Source of the DNA: Flaccisagitta enflata
Taxonomy: Eukaryota
Reading direction: 5' to 3'
DNA length: 64,000 nt
Assembly (NCBI GenBank): GCA_965153355.1
Contig: OZ231126.1
Location: 11,098,001-11,162,000 of the forward strand
Part shown: positions 9,469 through 36,409 of the stretch, piece by piece
Numbering within the stretch: position 1 is the stretch's first letter
How the letters are laid out: each line of letters begins with the position of its first letter
Notes under the pieces: generated by a model
The model's input: only the letters and a program-made list of their open reading frames with translations
Database searches by the model: none
Told to the model about the DNA's origin: nothing
Position numbers and translations under genes: made by a program

Positions 9469-12400
9469 TCATACGGTGTCTTTTACTTGAATCTCATTTT
9501 TTCCATTTTCTATGTTCCATACAGAACGCAAAAGTCGTGATATTTGGCGGATTGTACCAGTTTCTTCAGAATAAACCGCATTAAAATCAATGGAATACCC
9601 CCCGTTGCACAGGTTCACATGTTTCCACCTTTCACACACATTTATCCGGTGGCTTTCATCATCTACTTCATTACATTCCTTACATAAATCCGACCCATAT
9701 TTATTCTTAAAATTCTTTGCGCAATTTAGCATCCCGTATCTTGCCATAATAATAAGTTTTACAGTCTTCTTAGGTGATGTGAAAAGTTCATTATGCTTAT
9801 AATCATGTAGGTCTAAGTCATGCTCCAGTGCCTGAGATATCTTCAGCGTTTTTGTTCGCATCTTTCCCTTTCCTCTACATGAATCAAGAATCATTTTTGA
9901 ATTGAGACACCGCGTCGCGCATTCAACAACATGCCACCATTCACTTTTCTTTTTATGCTTAATTTCTTCTATGGTTAATGAAATTTCGCATTCATCTAAA
10001 ATCTTGACAATGTATGCTCCCCACCCTAAATCATTCCCTATTTGATATAACAAGGATGTTTTATACCAATCTGCATCATCTCTAGACAGTAGAATATGCA
10101 AGTATTTTAATTGTCTGTTAATCACTCTAATTGACATAAACATTGATCTAGTTTCAAAAATTATTGCTGCAGTTGGGGTGGTTATTGGTAGACCCAGAAG
10201 TTTCTTGTAGGCCCAAATCTCCATTTTGTCGAGTTTATTTCTGTCCGTCTTTGTCAGTATCCATGTTTCACAGTTAGTCAGAACTGCTGATATTGTGTAC
10301 GTCTCGTGCAATTGGAGAATTGTTTTTGTGCCCATCCCTTGAAGGACATCAATTTGGGAGCTTGCCAATACTTTTCTCGTTACTGCTTGTAGCTTCATTT
10401 TTCTGTGCTCCAGATTTTTGGCATTTCCTCCATCCGCACTGATGATATCACCTAAATAGGTGTACTGATTGGTGGAGGTGATTTCTGTACTGCCAAGCTT
10501 CCATTTTGTGCTAGGGTCATTCTCTGCGCCAATTTGCATCACTTTGCATTTGTCTGGTCCCCAGCAATGCTTGTGTTTCAATGCAAATTCATTGATGAAC
10601 TCGAGAGTTTTCATTTGCTGCTCATGATTTTCAGCAAAGGAAACTACATCGTCGACCCATTCCAATACTGCCAATAAGATGTCATTTATGTTAATGCCAA
10701 GCTCTGGTTCGTTTTGGAGATCCTCAGCTAGTGTGTCCATTAGCTTAGCAAAGAGGAAAGTCATTATTTTTCCCCCTTGTTTGCCTCCAATTTCTCTCTC
10801 TATTTTCCGCGTTTTGCCATATCTTGTGTGTATCCTCGCAGTAAGATCTGTATTCAACAGCTTTGTGAGTCGCCATATCTTACCTTTAAGACCACTATTC
10901 CATGCTATATATAACATGTCATCTGGGTCCGCATGATCGTAGGCCTTCTGTACATCAAAGAATGTGACAAAGATCTTACGTTTTTGCTTAAGGCAGGTGC
11001 TTATGACTGATCTAAGCAAGAAAACATGATCTCGCGTGGCACTTCCCTTCTTTCCGCCACCTTGAGCTTGTGTAAGTTTGATGACTGATCGCATCCTGTT
11101 GTGAATAATTTCCTCTGGGATCATGGATATAGAACTGGAGACGGTAATTCCACGATGAAATTCCAACTTTTCCTTATCTCCTTTTCCTTTCCATAAGGAG
11201 GAAATTAAGCCTTCATTCCAAAGACTCGGTGCTACTTCATCGAGCCAAAACATTCTAAAAACATGGTAAATGACTTTTGCCATTTCATCTTCGCCATATT
11301 TTAGAATTTCGTTTGGTATGTCTGTCGTGCTTTTGCCATTTTTCTTCTTTTGAATGGCATTTTTTATTTCTGTAAATGTGGGACATTCATTATACTCCTC
11401 GTCATCATGTGAGAAATCTTGCTCGTAAGCGTTTATGGATGATGTGACTATATCATGGTATGGATGGTAAGGAATGTCTTGCTTCTTGAAAAGCCCTTCA
11501 TAGTAACTTGCAGCCCATTCTTTTGAGTCTCTTGGGTCAGTGAGCCTTCGACCATCAGCATCTTTTATTGTTATCCATGATGAGGGAGGTTTTTTATTTC
11601 CGTCTTTTATCTCATTCCAATAAGTTTTTCTGCTTTTATCGCTCATCATTTTTTCAAATTTGTCCTTTATTCTTATTTCTCGTTCTTTTTTTATCAGCTC
11701 TCTTGTTTGTTTCTGCTTATCAATGTATCGCGCCTTCAATTGGTTTTTTGCCTGGTTATCACTTTCTTCTGATATCTCTTTCTTTAATGCGCGTTTTTCT
11801 TCTCTTAATATTTTAACGGATTCACTGAATTTTTCTGGTCTGGAGGTTTTTACTGTCTTTTTTCCAATTGTTCTCGATATGATTTTGCTCAATTCAGAAA
11901 ACCATTTTCCATACCGTTCATCTGTTGACATCTCGGTATTGAAAATCATTTCTTTACTTTTCTGTTCAAAATTTGCAAGCTCATGGACAAATGTATCACG
12001 TGCCTTCTCTGATGGATTTGTATTCCACTTTGAGACTGGTGCAAGCTGATATCGATCAACATTATGGAAGTTCAATGATATGGATATGGTGTTGTGGTCA
12101 GACGCAGCTTTATCACTGTGCATTGTGTATTTTCCTTCTTCATCGATTTCTATGGCTTCAAAAAGATTTTCAGCCTCTTGGCAGGATAAGACAAATTCGA
12201 TAGCAGACTTTTCACTTGGTTTTTTCCTGTTAACGCGCGTGACACTTCCAGCGCATTTTTCTGATAAATTCATATTTACAAGAGGGATTTCTTCTATCAT
12301 GTTGAGTAGGAATTTTCCATTTCTCGACACTTTTTCGCCTAGAATGCCTATTTTAGCGTTGGCATCCATAACAATTATAACATCGCCATTTTGTTTTAAT

Positions 12401-12867
12401 TCCATTATCTCTTCTGTTAATTCTCCAAATTCATTTTCACTATCCTCCTTTCTGACTCTTGACTCCTGTTTGCCATAATAAACTCCAATGTACAACGGAC
12501 ATTGGTTTTTTCGCCTGACACTTACCCAAATGAGCTCAATTTCTCTTCTAGTTTCATGGGGCGTGACATGTTCCATGAGGTCGTTTCTCACAAATATGCC
12601 TACTCCCCCACTCCCTTTGGTTTTGGTTTTCCGACCCTTTCCGCAAAATGAATATCCCTGAATTTGAATGTTTGACATGTCATTTAACATGGTTTCCGTG
12701 AACAGCGCTATTTGTGGCCGAGATTCCGTTAGAATATCTACAAGACATGGTATCTTACTTTTTATGCCTTGCGCATTTGCATATAAAATATTCCAGCGTT
12801 GATGGTAATTTTTTCCGTATCTTCTGTGTCGAGTTTTGGCTGGTTGATGGAATCCCGGCTTTACAAC
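9469..12867 (-). CDS. ORF2: APE endonuclease + reverse transcriptase + C-terminal CCHC-like motif
   Basis: The frame is open 59 codons upstream of the annotated Met (12690) up to the ORF1 stop and contains ILYANAQG and LFTET. APE motifs MDANA and SDHN; RT motifs FFDVQKAYD, KQGG and LEWVDD; C-terminal CKECNEVDDESHRINVC. Confidence 0.95.
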   Translation of the reverse strand, partial: VVKPGFHQPAKTRHRRYGKNYHQRWNILYANAQGIKSKIPCLVDILTESRPQIALFTETMLNDMSNIQIQGYSFCGKGRKTKTKGSGGVGIFVRNDLMEHVTPHETRREIELIWVSVRRKNQCPLYIGVYYGKQESRVRKEDSENEFGELTEEIMELKQNGDVIIVMDANAKIGILGEKVSRNGKFLLNMIEEIPLVNMNLSEKCAGSVTRVNRKKPSEKSAIEFVLSCQEAENLFEAIEIDEEGKYTMHSDKAASDHNTISISLNFHNVDRYQLAPVSKWNTNPSEKARDTFVHELANFEQKSKEMIFNTEMSTDERYGKWFSELSKIISRTIGKKTVKTSRPEKFSESVKILREEKRALKKEISEESDNQAKNQLKARYIDKQKQTRELIKKEREIRIKDKFEKMMSDKSRKTYWNEIKDGNKKPPSSWITIKDADGRRLTDPRDSKEWAASYYEGLFKKQDIPYHPYHDIVTSSINAYEQDFSHDDEEYNECPTFTEIKNAIQKKKNGKSTTDIPNEILKYGEDEMAKVIYHVFRMFWLDEVAPSLWNEGLISSLWKGKGDKEKLEFHRGITVSSSISMIPEEIIHNRMRSVIKLTQAQGGGKKGSATRDHVFLLRSVISTCLKQKRKIFVTFFDVQKAYDHADPDDMLYIAWNSGLKGKIWRLTKLLNTDLTARIHTRYGKTRKIEREIGGKQGGKIMTFLFAKLMDTLAEDLQNEPELGININDILLAVLEWVDDVVSFAENHEQQMKTLEFINEFALKHKHCWGPDKCKVMQIGAENDPSTKWKLGSTEITSTNQYTYLGDIISADGGNAKNLEHRKMKLQAVTRKVLASSQIDVLQGMGTKTILQLHETYTISAVLTNCETWILTKTDRNKLDKMEIWAYKKLLGLPITTPTAAIIFETRSMFMSIRVINRQLKYLHILLSRDDADWYKTSLLYQIGNDLGWGAYIVKILDECEISLTIEEIKHKKKSEWWHVVECATRCLNSKMILDSCRGKGKMRTKTLKISQALEHDLDLHDYKHNELFTSPKKTVKLIIMARYGMLNCAKNFKNKYGSDLCKECNEVDDESHRINVCERWKHVNLCNGGYSIDFNAVYSEETGTIRQISRLLRSVWNIENGKNEIQVKDTV

Positions 12868-14631
12868 TCAGTTTAGAGTACTCACTTTTTGCAGAATTGC
12901 ATGAGTAGACTTTGTTAGCTCAGTGATGGCATTCATGAGCGTTTGCTCTGATGATGGCTTTTCTTGCATCAGTATAGATGGTTGGTTGAGGCGAGAGGGC
13001 TGAGATGGATCTCTGTTGTGAGGCTGTGCATAGATGCTTCTTTTGATATTTCTTGCCACATGTTTGAAGGCAACGTCAGTGTAGTGTATGCCATTCAGCA
13101 TTATTGACCTCAATTTCTTTGTATTTCTGTCAAAAAGCTCCTGATTGTCGATGAAAGAGTATTTGGGTTTGCAACTTTCTGCATATTCTTTCAACTTATT
13201 GTTCAAGTTGATCTCATTTTGAGATACTGATGCTACCGCGCTAACATGAATATGCGCATTTGGGAAGGCCTTTGTATAGATGTCGCATACGTCTTTGTGT
13301 TTAGCAAACGTTTTTTCAGAGGACTCGTTTTTCAGGTCATTGAGGCCACACGCTACGACCACGTCTTTGACTTTTTCCGGGTCTTTAACTTTTGGAATGT
13401 CGATTTTTGCTTTGTCTAGCGTGTATCGTCGCCGTTTCAAAACTTTTTTCTTGTGGTGCAACTTTTCAGGTTCTAAAGCATTACCATTAGAATCGTGTAC
13501 AACTAGAATGTCAGCCTCTCTGAGGTGGTTTTGATCATTTTCATTCTCATTCTGTCGCTCTTCAGGCTCGTCGCATCTCACATGGTATTCTGTGGTGCTT
13601 CTTGTCTGGGCTTGGGACTCGATTTTGTTCTCCAAGTTGCCAATCTTATTTGCCATGTCCAGGAGAATGTCACTGCAGTTTTCTTGCCAGACTGTTGTCG
13701 TTTGGTTTTGTTGAGTTCCATTACTGTTGCTTGGAGCAGAGGCTGTTTTTTCGACAAGTTGGGAAACTGTAGCTTTTATCTCCTTGACTTCCACATTTGT
13801 CGCTTTGACTATCTCTTTTAAGTCAGTCATGGATTCGGCGAGATTTTCATACCTTTTCAGGATGATTGCACAATTGTTGCTCAATGTCTCATTGAGTTCA
13901 GATAATCCTTCGTTTTGCTGTCTGAGTTCCATGATTTCAGAATCTTTGCTCTGAATGACCGTCTGAACGAGATTTGTACAGATTTTTTCCAATGTCGTTT
14001 TGATGGAAGATTGTTGTTGAGTATGTTGGGCAATCATATTCAAACTCTGATCCAATTCGTCATCTGCAAACAAATCATCTTGAGATTCGATGTTTGTTTT
14101 TTCTATTTCGTTATTCTGATTTGGGATTTCCGATCGTTTTGGCTCATGTACGGTGATGATTTTGTTGGCGCCGCTTTTGAGCAAGTCTCTTACTTTCCTG
14201 GTCAAACTGTTGTTATGATCCGATGAACTCGCATCTTGACCGGTTCGAAATGTGTCATCCTCGGTTACTGTGCTACCGGTATCGTCTGTTTCATTTGAAT
14301 CACTGGTTAGATCGAAATCAGCGAGATCACTGTCAGTGGCTGAAATACGGTGACTTGAATTCAAAAGTGGCGGAGATTTATCCGGAGGTTGATTTGAAAC
14401 ATTAGTTTTTGCAATACATTCATCTGGATTTTCTTGAAACTCTTGCGCCGTAATCTTTATGGCTTCCGGATCAACATTATTGCCATTTGCATAGTCACAA
14501 ATGCTGTTTCGTAAAACGTCGACAGTTCCTTCAATCGGTAATCCGTTTACATGGCATATATATCGCAGGCACTTGATATTCTTGTATGGGTGTGAGGTAA
14601 GAAACGATTTTAGCGCAGCGCCGATAGCCAT
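12868..14631 (-). CDS. ORF1 protein: coiled coil + SGNH/GDSL esterase-like domain
   Basis: 587 aa with a heptad-rich middle and SGNH-like blocks LVVHDSN, VACGLND and NGIHY. It lies directly upstream of ORF2. Confidence 0.85.
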   Translation of the reverse strand: MAIGAALKSFLTSHPYKNIKCLRYICHVNGLPIEGTVDVLRNSICDYANGNNVDPEAIKITAQEFQENPDECIAKTNVSNQPPDKSPPLLNSSHRISATDSDLADFDLTSDSNETDDTGSTVTEDDTFRTGQDASSSDHNNSLTRKVRDLLKSGANKIITVHEPKRSEIPNQNNEIEKTNIESQDDLFADDELDQSLNMIAQHTQQQSSIKTTLEKICTNLVQTVIQSKDSEIMELRQQNEGLSELNETLSNNCAIILKRYENLAESMTDLKEIVKATNVEVKEIKATVSQLVEKTASAPSNSNGTQQNQTTTVWQENCSDILLDMANKIGNLENKIESQAQTRSTTEYHVRCDEPEERQNENENDQNHLREADILVVHDSNGNALEPEKLHHKKKVLKRRRYTLDKAKIDIPKVKDPEKVKDVVVACGLNDLKNESSEKTFAKHKDVCDIYTKAFPNAHIHVSAVASVSQNEINLNNKLKEYAESCKPKYSFIDNQELFDRNTKKLRSIMLNGIHYTDVAFKHVARNIKRSIYAQPHNRDPSQPSRLNQPSILMQEKPSSEQTLMNAITELTKSTHAILQKVSTLN

Positions 14632-14659
14632 TCTTTTCTTGTATAATTTGTTTGATAGA

Positions 14660-14720
14660 GTAATCCGTTAAAAATGGTAATCCGTTATGACGAGTAATCC
14701 GTAAAAACAAGTAATCCGTT
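14660..14720 (-). promoter_or_regulatory. Four GTAATCCGT motifs at exact 17-bp spacing in the LINE 5' UTR (candidate internal promoter)
   Basis: TAATCC starts at 14661, 14678, 14695 and 14712. Confidence 0.45.
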
Positions 14721-29409: not shown

Positions 29410-29539
29410 TTATTCAGTGACGTCACTGCTGCTGCCTGATGGTCTAGTGACCTCACATATGACCCCTGGCACATGACGGGGGTAGCTGTGAATCTGGCGT
29501 TGTTTTGATACAAGTAATAGTATTTTTAAAAGATGATAA

Positions 29540-29850
29540 AAAAGAAGAAAAAGACAAAATATGACAAAAATGACATAAATAACAAAAAAGACATAAATGA
29601 CAAAAATCACAAAAATCACAAAAATGACAAAAATGACAAAAGTAACAAAAATGACAAACATGAAATAAATGACAAAAATGATAAAAATGACAAAAATGAC
29701 AAAAATGACAAAAATGACATAAATGATAAAAATGAAAAAAATGACAAAAATGACCAAAATGACAAAAATGACAAAAATGACAAAATGACAAAAAAGACAA
29801 AAGTGACAAAAAAAGAGAAAAAAATGACAAAAAAATGACAAAAATGAAAA
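29540..29850. repeat. 9-bp tandem repeat (AAAATGACA)n inside the 23/23 element
   Basis: Directly visible. Confidence 0.9.
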
Positions 29851-32655
29851 AGAATAGAAAAAATAATATTTTTCATATTTAGTATGTAATTCTACAGTAT
29901 TATAACATAATAAATCCATCAGATGATTTTTGTCCAATTTTGAGTCGCTCTCAGAACATAGTGGGCCGCAAGCAGCCTCCCACGTGCTTACAGCGCCCCC
30001 ACACCTATCCAAGCCATCCACCACAAAATTCCAGTCACCCATCATTACCACCGGCACACTGTCATCCACGGCCACCTCCAGGCTTCGAATGAGCCCCGGA
30101 GTACCAGCCGCCCCTGGGTAGCCGTAGACTACCACAAGGTCCATTTCAAACAAAAACACCACACTCCTCACTCTTACCACCATCAACCTGCCAGCACTCA
30201 ACACCCTTTCATTCACGACCTCAAACTCACGCGAAATAACCAAGCAGACACCCGCATACGTATCCCCCTCCGCGTGTCCTGAGTGCAAGACATGATGAGA
30301 TAACCGCATGTCTTGCATTGGTTGGCACAACTGCTCGATATCTGAGCAGTGTGTCTCTTGTAGGGCAACGGCCCCAATATCAGATCCCCGCTGTATATAA
30401 GAGAGGATCCAAGAACCCTTGTATCGGGCTCTTGGTCCCCCTCCCAATCCATTGGGGTTATATGTCAGGAAACGCATAATCGGAGGAAAAGAGAAACACC
30501 AGTCACGCCAACACTACATACCAAGGCCAAGAAAGGCAAAAAACGCGCTCACCACCATTGCTTGCCAAGGTCAACAATTACTCCCATACTACCCTTATAG
30601 GCAGATGAGAGCACCTATCAACCCCCCCAAGCAACCATGGTAAGCACAGGATAACCAGCCCACCTAACCATTGCTACCAAGCCATGACCAGAGGCGATTC
30701 TAGCCTACCCTAGGGCCAGCCAGAATCGACCATAGACATGGCAAGGCAACAATATTTAGGGAGGGAGGCTAAAAATACACAAAAAAGGCGGAAAAAAAAA
30801 CAAAAACGGAGCCAAAACCGAAAAAGGCCAAAACCACCAACTGTTTCCCCCCCTACTGCCATCCAATGCCAATGGACGATTTCGGCCTACTCTAAGATAG
30901 GCCAAGATCGACCAAGGTCAAAGTAAGGCAGTAATGAGTAGGAAAAGAAGGCAGTACAAATAGGCAGAAAGGCAAAAAGGGGCGCCCCAACAGTAACGAG
31001 AGAGAATACAAAGGTCCCCCACACTAATCAAGCATGGTAGGACCCCCTCCCGCTATTGTCCGAGTGGGGAACCCGCGCCAAACCTAAACCAAACCAACCG
31101 GATTATTAGTGGCGATTCTGATGGCCCAAAACAGCTGTTTGGGTGGCCAGCCAATCAGGTCTTTCAGTTCACATCTACCTAACCAGCGGCCAACCAATCA
31201 GAGTAAAGTGACCATCCATCTCGCCAGTAATAATCCCCCGGAAGGTTATAAAAGGCAAAACGGAACCAGAAAACCAAACGCGCGAGGCGTAGCAGCTAAA
31301 CCAGGCGAGGGAGAAAACGACGAAAAAGAAAAAGGAAAAAAGAGAAAAAACAGAAAAAGGCAAAACGAAAAAGAAAAGGCCGGAACAAAGACGAAAAAGG
31401 CAACTAAGCAAGCGACTACGGGGAAGAAAACCCAACTCAATTCAAAGGTGAATTGAATCAAGCCCTCTTCCCAAGCAACAACGACGACGACAAAAGGCCA
31501 AGATGGGGGAAGTATCGACCAAGCAAGCAAGCGACCAAGCGAGCAACCAAGTGACCAAGCTGACCAACCAAGCCAGCCGCCAATCAGGCGACCTGGCTCT
31601 CAAGTGAGCGGGCGATCAACCTAGCAAGCGAAACGACCAAGCAGGCAGACCTTCCCCCTACCCATCAACCAAGCAACCAACCGGGCGACCAAGCGAACGA
31701 CGACAGGAGGGGGGGGGGACCTAAAGTCCTCCCTTTCCTCCCTTTTGCCCACCTCTGGACTGCGCCCTGCTCTGGCGCTGCTGCTGTTGGCCTGGCTGTT
31801 TCAACAAAGCAACCAACTCACGCTGGCTAATGCTAGGCATTTCCTTAGCGTCCCTGCTGACACTCAAATTCCTCTTTGCGTTACTATTCATCTCACCATC
31901 GGGATCAAGAGTTTCATCGCCTCTCGCTCTCTTCAATGAGGCACTGCGGTGCCTCGCGTCCTTGTTTTGGAGTCGAGGGATGGCCATTTTTGGAGCCGTT
32001 GATCCGGAGTAGGCCGACATGGCTGCGCTGCCAAGGGCCTGCAATCTCGCCGAGAGATGCTGGAAGGAACTCGGAGGGTGCTGCTGCTGCTGCAGCCGCC
32101 ACCGCGACTGGTGCTGGTGTCACGATGACCGCGACATGGCCGGATGAGAGCGCCGGGGAGGCGCCAAGAGCGCCGTCCGCGATGCTGTGGTTGATGCTGA
32201 TGCTGTTGTTGTTGCTGTTGAGGCTGGAGACACACGAAATCATCTCCGGTGTCAGTGCGAATGAGCCACTTTCGCTGCCGCTACTTCCTCCTCCTCCTTC
32301 TCTGAAGCCGTCAGCTTCTCCAAGGTGGCTGCTGCTTTTGCTGCCTCATCCTCCTCTTCCTACACCTGGCTGCCCCAACTGACGTTGCCTTGGAGTGTGT
32401 CGTCGCCTTCTTCAACTGGGACCACCACCTCCGCTGCTTCCGCGACTCTCTTCTTCTTCTTCCTCCTCCTCATTTCCTTTGGAGCCTGTGAGGATTCTAC
32501 TATATCCTCCTCCTCCTCCTCTTCCACTTCGCCTCCTTCTCCTGCAAGACTGAAGAGGGCATCCTGCGTCGATGTCGCTGCTGATGCTGCTGATGCTGCT
32601 GTTGTCGAAGACGAAGCTGCCGCAAACGGAGCCGGTGATTGGCCGGCCACTGGTG

Positions 32656-33750
32656 CACAGTGCGAGATTAGAGGAAAAAATTTTAAAATGAATAAAATGT
32701 GTCATAGAACATCATCTTGCTACTCTTTTAGTTTTTTCAAAACGTCTCAAAACGTCACCTCCGTTTGGGAAATATGGTGATTTTGGGGGTTGGGTGGCTG
32801 TAGGGGTGCCCGAGGTGGTGATAAAGGGGGTATTTGGGGTGATTTTGTATTTTTAGGTTAAACTTCCCTCTGGTATATCAAAATCTCGCTATGTGATGGT
32901 GATTTTGGGGGTTGGGTGGCTGTAGGGGTGCCCGAGGTGGTGATAAAGGGGGTATTTGGGGTGATTTTGTAATTTTTGGTTAAACTTCCCTCTGGTATAT
33001 CAAAATCTCGCTATGTGATGGTGATTTTGGGGGTTGGGTGGCTGTAGGGGTGCCCGAGGTGGTGATAAAGGGGGTATTTGGGGTGATTTTGTAATTTTTG
33101 GTTAAACTTCCCTCTGGTATATCAAAATCTCGCTATGTGATGGTGATTTTGGGGGTTGGGTGGCTGTAGGGGTGCCCGAGGTGGTGATAAAGGGGGTATT
33201 TGGGGTGATTTTGTATTTTTAGGTTAAACTTTCCTCTGGTATATCAAAATCTCGCTATGTGATGGTGATTTTGGGGGTTGGGTGGCTGTAGGGGTGCCCG
33301 AGGTCGTGAAAAAGGGGGTATTTGGGGTGATTTTGTATTTTTAGGTTAAACTTTCCTCTGGTATATCAAAATCTCGCTATGTGATGGTGATTTTGGGGGT
33401 TGGGTGGCTGTAGGGGTGCCCGAGGTGGTGATAAAGGGGGTATTTGGGGTGATTTTGTATTTTTAGGTTAAACTTTCCTCTGGTATATCAAAATCTCGCT
33501 ATGTGATGGTGATTTTGGGGGTTGGGTGGCTGTAGGGGTGCCCGAGGTGGTGATAAAGGGGGTATTTGGGGTGATTTTGTATTTTTTAGGTTAAACTTTA
33601 CTCTGGTATATCAAAATCTCGCTATGTGATGGTGATTATGGGGGTTGGGTGGCTGTAGGGGTGCCCGAGGTGGTGATAAAGGGGGTATTTGGGGTGATTT
33701 TGTATTTTTAGGTTAAACTTTCCTCTGGTATATCAAAATCTCGCTATGTG
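32656..33750. mobile_element. Transib/RAG-like non-autonomous element with asymmetric ends
   Basis: Perfect 5-bp TSD TGGTG (32651-32655, 33751-33755). Left end CACAGTG-CGAGATT-AGAGGAAA, right end CACATAG-CGAGATT-TTGATATACC-AGAGGAAA. Confidence 0.85.
32774..33750. repeat. 8 x 122-bp tandem repeat of the element's right end
   Basis: CTCGCTATGTG ends at 32895, 33017, 33139, 33261, 33383, 33505, 33628 and 33750. Confidence 0.95.
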
Positions 33751-33954
33751 TGGTGGTTGCTGCACTGCTGCCGCTGTCGAAGTCGTTGTTGATGGCGCCG
33801 GTGCAAGTTGCGTCGGCGCTGTTGCTGCTGCAGATGATGATGATGATGAAGTTGGAGGGAGTGTTGCTCTTGCTGCTGCCGAAGTTACTGTAGCAGTTGT
33901 GGAAGATGTCGAGGCCGTTACCACTGCTGCATATGATGGCAACGTCGCCGTCGT

Positions 33955-34880
33955 TGTTGTTGTTGTTGTTATCCAGCATGTCGTATTATTCTGGGCTTGA
34001 TGGTAGATCCGCCGTCGATTAATCGAATTAATGGGACGGGTCCCATACCGGCGGGAACCATCTAGGGTGGTGGTGGCTCAGGAGGAGGCCGTCTCCTTCG
34101 AGTTGCTCTGGGAGGAGGAGGGGGAGAAGGACCCGAATCCGGCAGGTCGGAGAAGGATGGAAGGGAAGAGAGAAAGGCAGCCGCTTCACGGGGACGTTCC
34201 CATAGATCCGAAGTCGTCAAATTGGTCGGATGCGATGTACAACTAAATAAATGACTAGATGAGTGTGTTGCTGACTGACAATCCGGACAGAGGTCAGAGG
34301 CGGAACGACCAATGCGGTGGAGGTAGTCGTTCAGGTGAGCACAGTGGCCAGAGCGCAGTTGACTAAGAACAGTGCGGGTACGACGAGGTAGGGATTTCTC
34401 ACTCGGGTGGATTAGCGGTGGAGCTGCATTCAAAACGCGGTTAGGCTGGAAAGCATCGACAACGTCACTGACAACTTGGACATGGAGCCGGTTCTTTTTT
34501 GGATTCAGGACGGATAATACCATCATCAGCCACAAACGGGGAGACGGCATCCCAGCACTTTGAGCGTAATGACTCCTTCATCTTCCTGGGGCCAAGTGGT
34601 TGTTCATTGACGATTCGATGTGAAGGATGACTGGGAACAAGCGCGCGAGCCAGGTATTGCGATGACAATAGGTGGAGATGCTCTTTGACTGGAAGAATTT
34701 GAGTTTCCTGATGGATATGATCAACAGACGCCGCTTTGTGGGCACCAGTGATGAGACGTAGACATTTGTTTTGGATCAACTGTAGGCGATTGATAGACGA
34801 CGGGGAATAGTTGGGATAGACGATGGGGGCCGCATAGTCGAAGAATGGTCGAATAAGGGCCTTGAACGTCATCGTCAAGC
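33955..34880 (-). mobile_element. 5'-truncated LINE (I/Jockey/Ingi-group-like ORF2 C-terminus)
   Basis: 13-bp TSD ACGTCGCCGTCGT (33942-33954, 34881-34893) and a (CAA)n tail. Protein motifs FKALIRPFFDYA...LQLIQNKCLRLITG and LSQLRSGH...CPDC...HLFSC. Confidence 0.88.
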
Positions 34881-36409
34881 ACGTCGCCGTCGTCGCCATG
34901 TCTCCCGATGGCGGTGCATAAGGAGGGCATGCAAACTCCTTATGTAATCGGGTGCAACGCATGCATCCAACCTTGTGATGGCGGTCCAAGCATCCATCGT
35001 ACGGGTTGTCGGCCACCTGAAAAGAAGCTATCGCCTCCTTCCCCATCTTATCATTGACATCAGTCCGCACCCAACCCATCACCTTTCGGGTTCCACCTGC
35101 GGAGTAGTGGATCCCGTCTCGGTCGAGATCTTCGGGGTCGAAGACGAGGGTGTCGAGGTCGATGAAGGTGCAGCCTATTTTCGTTGCCGCTCGCTTTGCC
35201 TCTGCGTGGGTGAAGCGGCGATAATCATACTCCGGGCCATAGCTGATTTCACCGACGAAAGGATCGACGATGAAAATAGAGCGGTCGCCGTTGTTTAGAG
35301 GGGACAACACCTTGCAGAGCTCCTCAAACTGACGCTCCACCATCTCCTTCGCGTCATCAAAATCTCGGCCGTTATTGTTACGGCCCACCGACACGATCAC
35401 AATTTCGCCGTAAGGAAGGATGGACGGATCATTGTTTATGTGGTTCGCCACATGTCCAATTTTCGCGCCGGGGATGGCATCCACCCGCATTGAAGCGTCG
35501 TCCTTCAACATTCTCATGATGCTGTCGCCGAATAAGAGGATTCTTGGCGGGGTAGCTGCTGCCGATGCCGCCGCCGCATTCCTCCGCCTGCGATTGCCGC
35601 CGCCTCCGTTGCTACGCTGTTGCCAACGTGGGCACTGCCCATCCTTGTGCGTGTCGTTGCACTGCCCGCATTCGAAGGGTTACTGCCTATACACGATTTT
35701 AAAGGTGTACTCCACCCCTTCATCCGACGTCCACTTGTTGAAGCGTGGTAGATGGCGACTTCCAATCTCCACCAATGCCTCCCTAACACCATTATAGATG
35801 CCAGACGCCTCCTCATGCTCCTTGCTGACGGTTGGCTGGACGATGACGCATCCGTAATCCTGCATGAAGGCGTCGAAATATTCGTCTCCTACCAACACCA
35901 TCTCTCCTTCATACGTTTGGAAGAATTTAACCCAGGTCGCGGGTTTATTCGACTTCCTCCTCCTCATCGGTATCGTCGTCTTCGTCCTTCCCTTCTCCAC
36001 CTTCAACTCAAACTTCTCCAACACCGCCGCCGCCTCCTTCGTCCGCGCCGAGACGTTGAAAACGCCGCGCTTCCTGAAGGCGTCGGTGATGACGACATTG
36101 TTGAGGATTGTCGTTCCGTGCTAAATCCTTTATCTGCTCCCGGAACGCCTTGGCCACCCACGCCACGTCGATTCCGAGCTGCGAGGGCACGCCAGAACGC
36201 CCGGAAAAGTCGAGGGTGAAGAGACGCTGCGACGCCGCCGCTGTTGACGTCGTCGTCGTCATTCTCGTCGTCGTCGTCTCGCCTACAAAAATAATGCACA
36301 GTCCACACAAAACACAAACGCACAGTCCAACAAGCAGATCCTCGAAAAAGTTACTCGATTCAAGAACGTCGCCGTCGTCGTCAGCGTCGCCGTGATAGAC
36401 GCCGCCAAT

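Follow-up and report, generated by a model that had tools for sequence, protein, structure and literature searches.

The DNA transposon copy at positions 32656-33750 of the window, by which we mean the entire 64,000-nucleotide stretch of Flaccisagitta enflata DNA analyzed here, is a Transib-type non-autonomous element as judged by its ends and its target-site duplication (TSD). We place a probability of roughly 85% on the reading that it is an internally deleted, non-coding copy in which one short-spacer end faces an array of long-spacer ends, and that a Transib transposase likely pairs the short signal with any one of the long ones and cuts by way of hairpins on the flanking DNA. This arrayed long end is a more unusual feature than the spacer asymmetry that a preceding sequence-only reading had emphasized, and it was absent from that account.

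A check of the sequence gives the copy a length of 1,095 bp, with TGGTG on both its left (32651..32655) and its right (33751..33755). From 32656 on the plus strand, the short-spacer signal (32656..32683) reads CACAGTG followed by CGAGATTAGAGG and an A-tract. The outermost long-spacer signal (33713..33750, minus strand), which is the one used for this insertion, reads inward from 33750 as CACATAG followed by CGAGATTTTGATATACCAGAGG and AAAG. The conserved distal box AGAGGAAA is present in both, its offset being 14 in the short end and 24 in the long one. A 14-nt end motif finds 10 matches in the window with at most two mismatches, against 0.42 expected, and 9 of the 10 fall in the element. The sequence-only reading had described the ends as heptamers joined by 12- and 22-bp spacers to a second box. 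Its 10-bp difference is present in the sequence and is robust, but the "12/22 plus nonamer" labeling is a choice of register, and AAAGTTTAA, the "nonamer" of the right end, matches an RSS nonamer poorly. Likewise, the CACATAG end that it reported does lie at 33750 but is not single. The array (32774..33750, minus strand) consists of eight 122-bp units that are 98% identical, all of which terminate in the right-end signal, with heptamer ends at 32895, 33017, 33139, 33261, 33383, 33505, 33628, and 33750; the box is altered in the unit ending at 33628.

On its other side, the array adjoins a left terminal segment of 118 bp (32656..32773, plus strand) that has a 2-bp microhomology to the first of its units. 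This segment is 100% identical over 120 bp to copy L001, and the remaining left arm has been deleted to an endpoint that coincides with a unit start. Among the family copies compared, only the window copy has its array directly after the first 120 bp. A short inverted repeat at approximately positions 128-160 of the L001 left arm, just beyond the deletion point of the window copy, is conserved both in the window's family (family A) and in a sister family.

The insertion itself was read correctly from the sequence. Removal in silico of the element and one TGGTG restores the minus-strand host frame (QQPPVAGQS), and a paralogous host copy of approximately 90% identity, L304, has the same frame with one TGGTG and no element. 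The duplication is therefore real. A chance match of TGGTG to the unit start ATGGTG was ruled out by this empty paralog and by the different TSDs of other copies. The interrupted frame (32360..34076, minus strand) is likely the low-complexity part of a non-LTR retrotransposon ORF1. Upstream of it is a GDSL/SGNH-type frame (34465-35679) that matches PF13472 at E=1e-5, which is under the curated cut-off. At 34062-35679 and 29410-30513, the host retroelement is itself interrupted by an apparent second non-LTR 3' fragment, with a GDSL-like ORF1 and endonuclease remnants close by. Elsewhere in the window, a near-complete non-LTR retrotransposon (9469-14667, minus strand) has frames of 599 and 1132 aa; the identity of its domains was assigned by eye.

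A search of the source genome (794 Mb in nine contigs) returned 40 left-end matches and 37 exact short-end matches to a 19-nt pattern, and the 10-20 kb behind these matches were fetched for inspection. A terminal long end could be called for 29 of 44 recognizable left ends, and 22 of these copies, the window included, have an exact 5-bp TSD; a 23rd such copy was confirmed separately. The TSD-bearing copies measure 1.1-15.6 kb, and 2-68 units were counted in them. The 22 TSDs are 66% GC, and 5-bp duplications at GC-rich targets are a Transib trait, as are the family's CAC-initial ends, in which an RSS-like heptamer is accompanied by an A-rich distal box. Of the 44 short ends, 42 place the AGAGG box at offset 14. 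All 29 long ends place it at offset 24, a count that is partly imposed by the search pattern, and a gapped BLAST listing gives the same layout. Because the 10-bp asymmetry is fixed in the family, which the sequence-only reading had proposed to check by aligning copies, and its length is kept in related families, a copy-specific indel is excluded.

The offset is common to four families, and in each only the long end is arrayed, with units of 122 (family A), 112 (sister family), 71 (family B), and 81 bp (family C). The sister family has ends of CACATTG plus 12 bp and an A-tract, and CACAGTA plus 22 bp and AAAC; it retains the family-A box with a diverged spacer, and its TSD is AGCTG. Family B has the box TGATGGGAAAAA at the same 12/22 spacing, an array of approximately 30 units, TSD-flanked copies, and open transposase frames of 769-791 aa, one of them near 68.56 Mb of G000:C6. 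Its long-end nonamer match is good, and that of family A is weak. In family C, whose two ends come from different copies, the box TATCAAGG sits at offsets 13 and 23. The arrayed end lies 5' of the gene in the A clade and in family C, and 3' of the gene in family B. In all four families the inner heptamers are followed by similar ATGGTG or TAGGTG sequences. Family-B loci L196-L206 have further tandem repeats of 22-28 bp and of 74 bp between the transposase and the end array. Family-B element DNA is also present in marine metagenome runs.

Sixty exact long ends have no further unit behind them, and 38 of these, 35 of them unique, have no matching short end nearby. Twenty-one of the 35 orphan arrays begin no more than 5 bp from an internal heptamer (unit positions 1-5 of 122), compared with approximately 1.4 expected (binomial P about 1e-20; one of the 21, L168, is a misparse), and 14 start elsewhere along the unit. 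In 16 of the 21 border-starting orphans, the bases immediately before the array match the 3' TSD, taken as the 5 bp that follow the last unit, compared with a mean of 2.3 and a maximum of 8 in 20,000 shuffles; the other five fall under the TSD-score threshold. The reconstructed empty site is present in other fetched loci for three of four orphan loci probed. Family B provides a replicate, drawn from the first 30 of 401 matches (all on C1), in which 14 of 18 evaluable orphans start at position 5 or earlier. Their summed TSD score is 38.75 against a shuffle mean of 11.1, and 0 of 20,000 shuffles scored as high; only 7 of the 14 pass the threshold singly, and the shuffle maximum for that count is also 7.

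Among 40 hand-chosen junctions that were parsed flexibly (three come only from a pattern excluding G before the unit), 8 are flush, 8 have no 5-nt TSD, and 24 have inserted bases. The inserted bases are palindromic to an adjacent end at 18 of the 24 (P=0.002 against 0.44), and P-nucleotides at donor joints, seen here in this hand-chosen set, are a trait of hairpin-forming transposases (RAG/Transib/hAT). At L132, L136, and L161, the palindromes are to the first bases of the unit. No reverse-oriented units were seen in 44 loci around orphan arrays or unit starts, which is weakly compatible with a 12/23 rule. Border starts, TSDs, and palindromic bases are all predicted if the enzyme cuts through flank hairpins at the short signal and at one of the inner long signals. 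The orphan arrays have the appearance of coding joints left by excisions that ran from the short signal to an inner long one. The enzyme likely also cuts at inner copies of the long end, in which case the short signal probably has a choice of many partners, as in V(D)J recombination.

Most inner signals in complete copies are untouched: across 20 such copies, 260 of the 273 junctions are canonical. In the array of L082, a few inner junctions carry small insertions at the heptamer border that are possibly open-and-shut joints. A short end at L062/L235 (G000:C7 43.49 Mb) directly adjoins an array in inverted orientation, one base past an inner heptamer; an element inserting into an array, or an inversion within one molecule, is the likely cause.

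A Transib, and not a RAG1-RAG2 pair, is the most probable partner enzyme, as suggested by the proteins encoded beside these ends. The genome search found no intact autonomous copy of the exact window family, and a Transib-like protein match is absent from the TSD-bearing copies with the exception of L095. The L095 element begins with a family-A short end (only 87.5% identical to family A over 201 bp) and contains five Transib-like exons on the minus strand; no long end was found within 30 kb. Close relatives of these exons lie inside sister-family ends, and in C4_37 they stand between the short end and the array, directly before the latter. The best PDB match is HzTransib both for an L095 exon (E=3e-4) and for family B (E=5e-11), and the RAG-like leaning of the sequence-only reading is not supported. 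Family B has a GRP motif, and both family B and L095 have a CTT1-like motif, C-x2-C-x5-H-x4-C, that is two residues longer than the published C-x2-C-x3-GH-x4-C. Asymmetric TIRs together with a CTT1-type C-terminal motif are traits of Subgroup I Transibs (Tao 2022). The RAG2-like gene sought by that same reading, which is a trait of RAGL transposons, was not found between the ends by tblastn in 22 transposase-bearing loci. Furthermore, in an unrooted tree of 20 rows, which carries long-branch warnings and includes no named Transib reference, a 100/100 branch splits six proteins of the array-linked group (the array is not shown for one, C1_50) from RAG1-like proteins, and the RAG1L-RAG2L loci of this genome fall on the opposite side from the family-linked Transib-type proteins. 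The first four PF12940 loci were rejected as autonomous partners, with no family ends within approximately 10 kb. Two further loci, L101:1480-2622 (G000:C6 12.75 Mb) and L102, hold RAG1-core-like frames that are divergent and stand alone, with Cys/His motifs near the C terminus, and no transposon ends were found for either.

The same genome also has three RAG2L-RAG1L loci (L195:4621-9518, minus strand; L224:4286-8934, plus strand; and G000:C8 at ~38.377-38.381 Mb, minus strand), which are possibly as interesting as the arrayed ends. RAG2L was found genome-wide only at these three loci, always beside RAG1L. The genes are in tandem on the same strand with RAG2L upstream, as in AanRAGL of an alga, and not convergent. 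A HMMER library search gave 84 RAG1L matches, of which five of five checked are PF12940, and another homologous-protein search gave none. RAG1L has a RING and a zinc finger, and amphioxus RAG1L is its best PDB match (E=1e-28). In the C4 copy, the frame includes a GRPK motif and lacks a CCGHC-type tail. RAG2L combines kelch repeats with a PHD-like end, and its match to PF03089 reaches the cut-off. The C8 copy carries a frameshift. A candidate left end is common to the C4 and C8 loci; a search for right ends found none. RAGL and family-B frames drew 0 reads in 6% of run X18, a result that does not amount to an expression test.

Perhaps these RAG1L-RAG2L complexes, and not a Transib, recognize the window-family ends in trans. 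The open C4 copy, whose GRPK motif is typical of nonamer binding, and the perfect CACAGTG of the short end would both suit such an arrangement. However, the candidate end of the C4 and C8 loci, which begins CAC(A/T)GTGGGCCGA, is different and has no similarity to family-A ends, whereas Transib exons do reside in elements with family-A or sister-family ends and the same end architecture flanks the family-B Transib frames, so that we consider trans recognition by RAGL very improbable. A separate possibility is that the 10-bp offset is a historical accident that has no role in pairing, with only the first ~14 bases being relevant. In the available part of PMC7204232, invertebrate RAGL is proposed to rely on the terminal 15-17 bp and to be relatively insensitive to asymmetry. 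We consider an accident of this kind unlikely; the offset is exactly 10 bp in four families with different spacer and box sequences.

Finally, the array could be a passive satellite, like those of Tetris or Xmix, in which only the outermost signal is ever used. Orphans would then be excision gaps that were partly refilled from the sister chromatid, right flank first, and then end-joined. Post-excision gap repair is standard for DNA transposons, according to the available part of PMC9659126, and it would leave right-end units beside a TSD; the 14 of 35 orphan starts away from the heptamer border fit this route. Aborted synthesis nevertheless predicts scattered starts, and those observed lie within 5 bp of a heptamer at 21/35 and 14/18 loci in two families. 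Unit-start microhomology is no explanation for this clustering because the orphan TSDs are diverse, and the palindromes to the unit's first bases also count against gap repair. It is therefore disfavored as the main route to orphan arrays, and we judge it improbable, slightly more so than an accidental offset.

Returning to pairing of the short signal with alternative long signals, we infer the pairing rule, the enzyme identity, and the origin of the array as follows. A Transib of the intron-containing clade, of which L095 would hold a remnant, may act in trans on window-family ends. If the short signal is paired with the outermost long signal, the whole element would move. If it is paired with an inner one, a shorter element would move, and the outer units would stay where they were as a scar resembling a coding joint, trimmed and carrying added palindromic bases. 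The array could then be refilled through repeat expansion by slippage or unequal exchange, and it likely originated from a duplication covering the end and ~11 bp of old flank. Whether the entire Transib clade in this genome uses arrays of one short against many long signals, with a true 12/23-type rule and V(D)J-like joints at each jump, is a broader proposal that we regard as evenly balanced. If it is true, each jump would pick among dozens of partners and leave V(D)J-like joints, and the clade would offer a living, selfish model in which clusters of RSSs and a choice of partner emerge in the absence of RAG2, as well as a route for the seeding of satellite arrays.

The origin of the 12/23 rule, like that of clustered recombination signals, is still an open question, and published asymmetric Transib and RAGL ends back such an origin by sequence resemblance. 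Dozens of apparent excision scars, made at alternative signals, are preserved in this genome, and open transposase frames exist in a related family. Spacer-length pairing, the choice between inner and outer signals, and RAG2 independence are therefore testable with a natural enzyme and substrate. The scars also show concretely how DNA transposons could spread satellite arrays.

End asymmetry of this kind is already known, because 12/23-like Transib ends were published in 2005 and 2022. PMC1131882, in its available part, describes five families (Transib5, Transib2_AG, and TransibN1-N3_AG) with 12/23-like ends and GC-rich TSDs of 5 bp, and all Subgroup I Transibs are asymmetric (PMC9435367). The elements described here resemble these in their CAC heptamer, one-turn asymmetry, 5-bp GC-rich TSD, non-autonomous derivatives, GRP-type and CTT1-like motifs, and absence of RAG2 from the loci searched. 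Unlike published Transibs, they have a long end that is a tandem array of about 2-70 signals, with apparent scars where inner signals were used for excision, and the transposase of clade A is encoded in several exons. In the literature searched, whose scope left out Repbase and most subscription journals and which included the available part of PMC8355894, no functional Transib ends in arrays were found.

Among RAGL elements, a 10-bp asymmetry is described for PflRAGL-A of Ptychodera flava in the available text of bioRxiv 2023.08.20.553239, and AanRAGL has RAG2L upstream in tandem (PMC9435367). As far as the available texts describe them, both share with the window family a heptamer, a conserved adjacent block, a spacer asymmetry of approximately 10 bp, and a 5-bp TSD; they encode RAG1L and RAG2L with one TIR per end, whereas no RAG2L was found for the window family. 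Tetris TIR-220 and Xmix/Xstir (PMC9659126, PMC6004289) are similar in that tandem repeats were amplified from part of a DNA transposon, and Xstir is called an internal segment in the available part of PMC6004289. Their units, in contrast, are not described as cleavage signals in the available parts of these sources, a difference that draws on secondary descriptions. As in V(D)J recombination, one signal type faces a cluster of the other, deletion proceeds to a chosen inner signal, and the junctions resemble coding joints in their trimming and P-like bases. Unlike V(D)J recombination, this is a selfish, inherited element that has no coding segments and no RAG2, and its 12/23-type pairing is putative. 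The novelty, then, is not the asymmetry but the one-to-many signal array, with apparent excision scars that are replicated in a second family.
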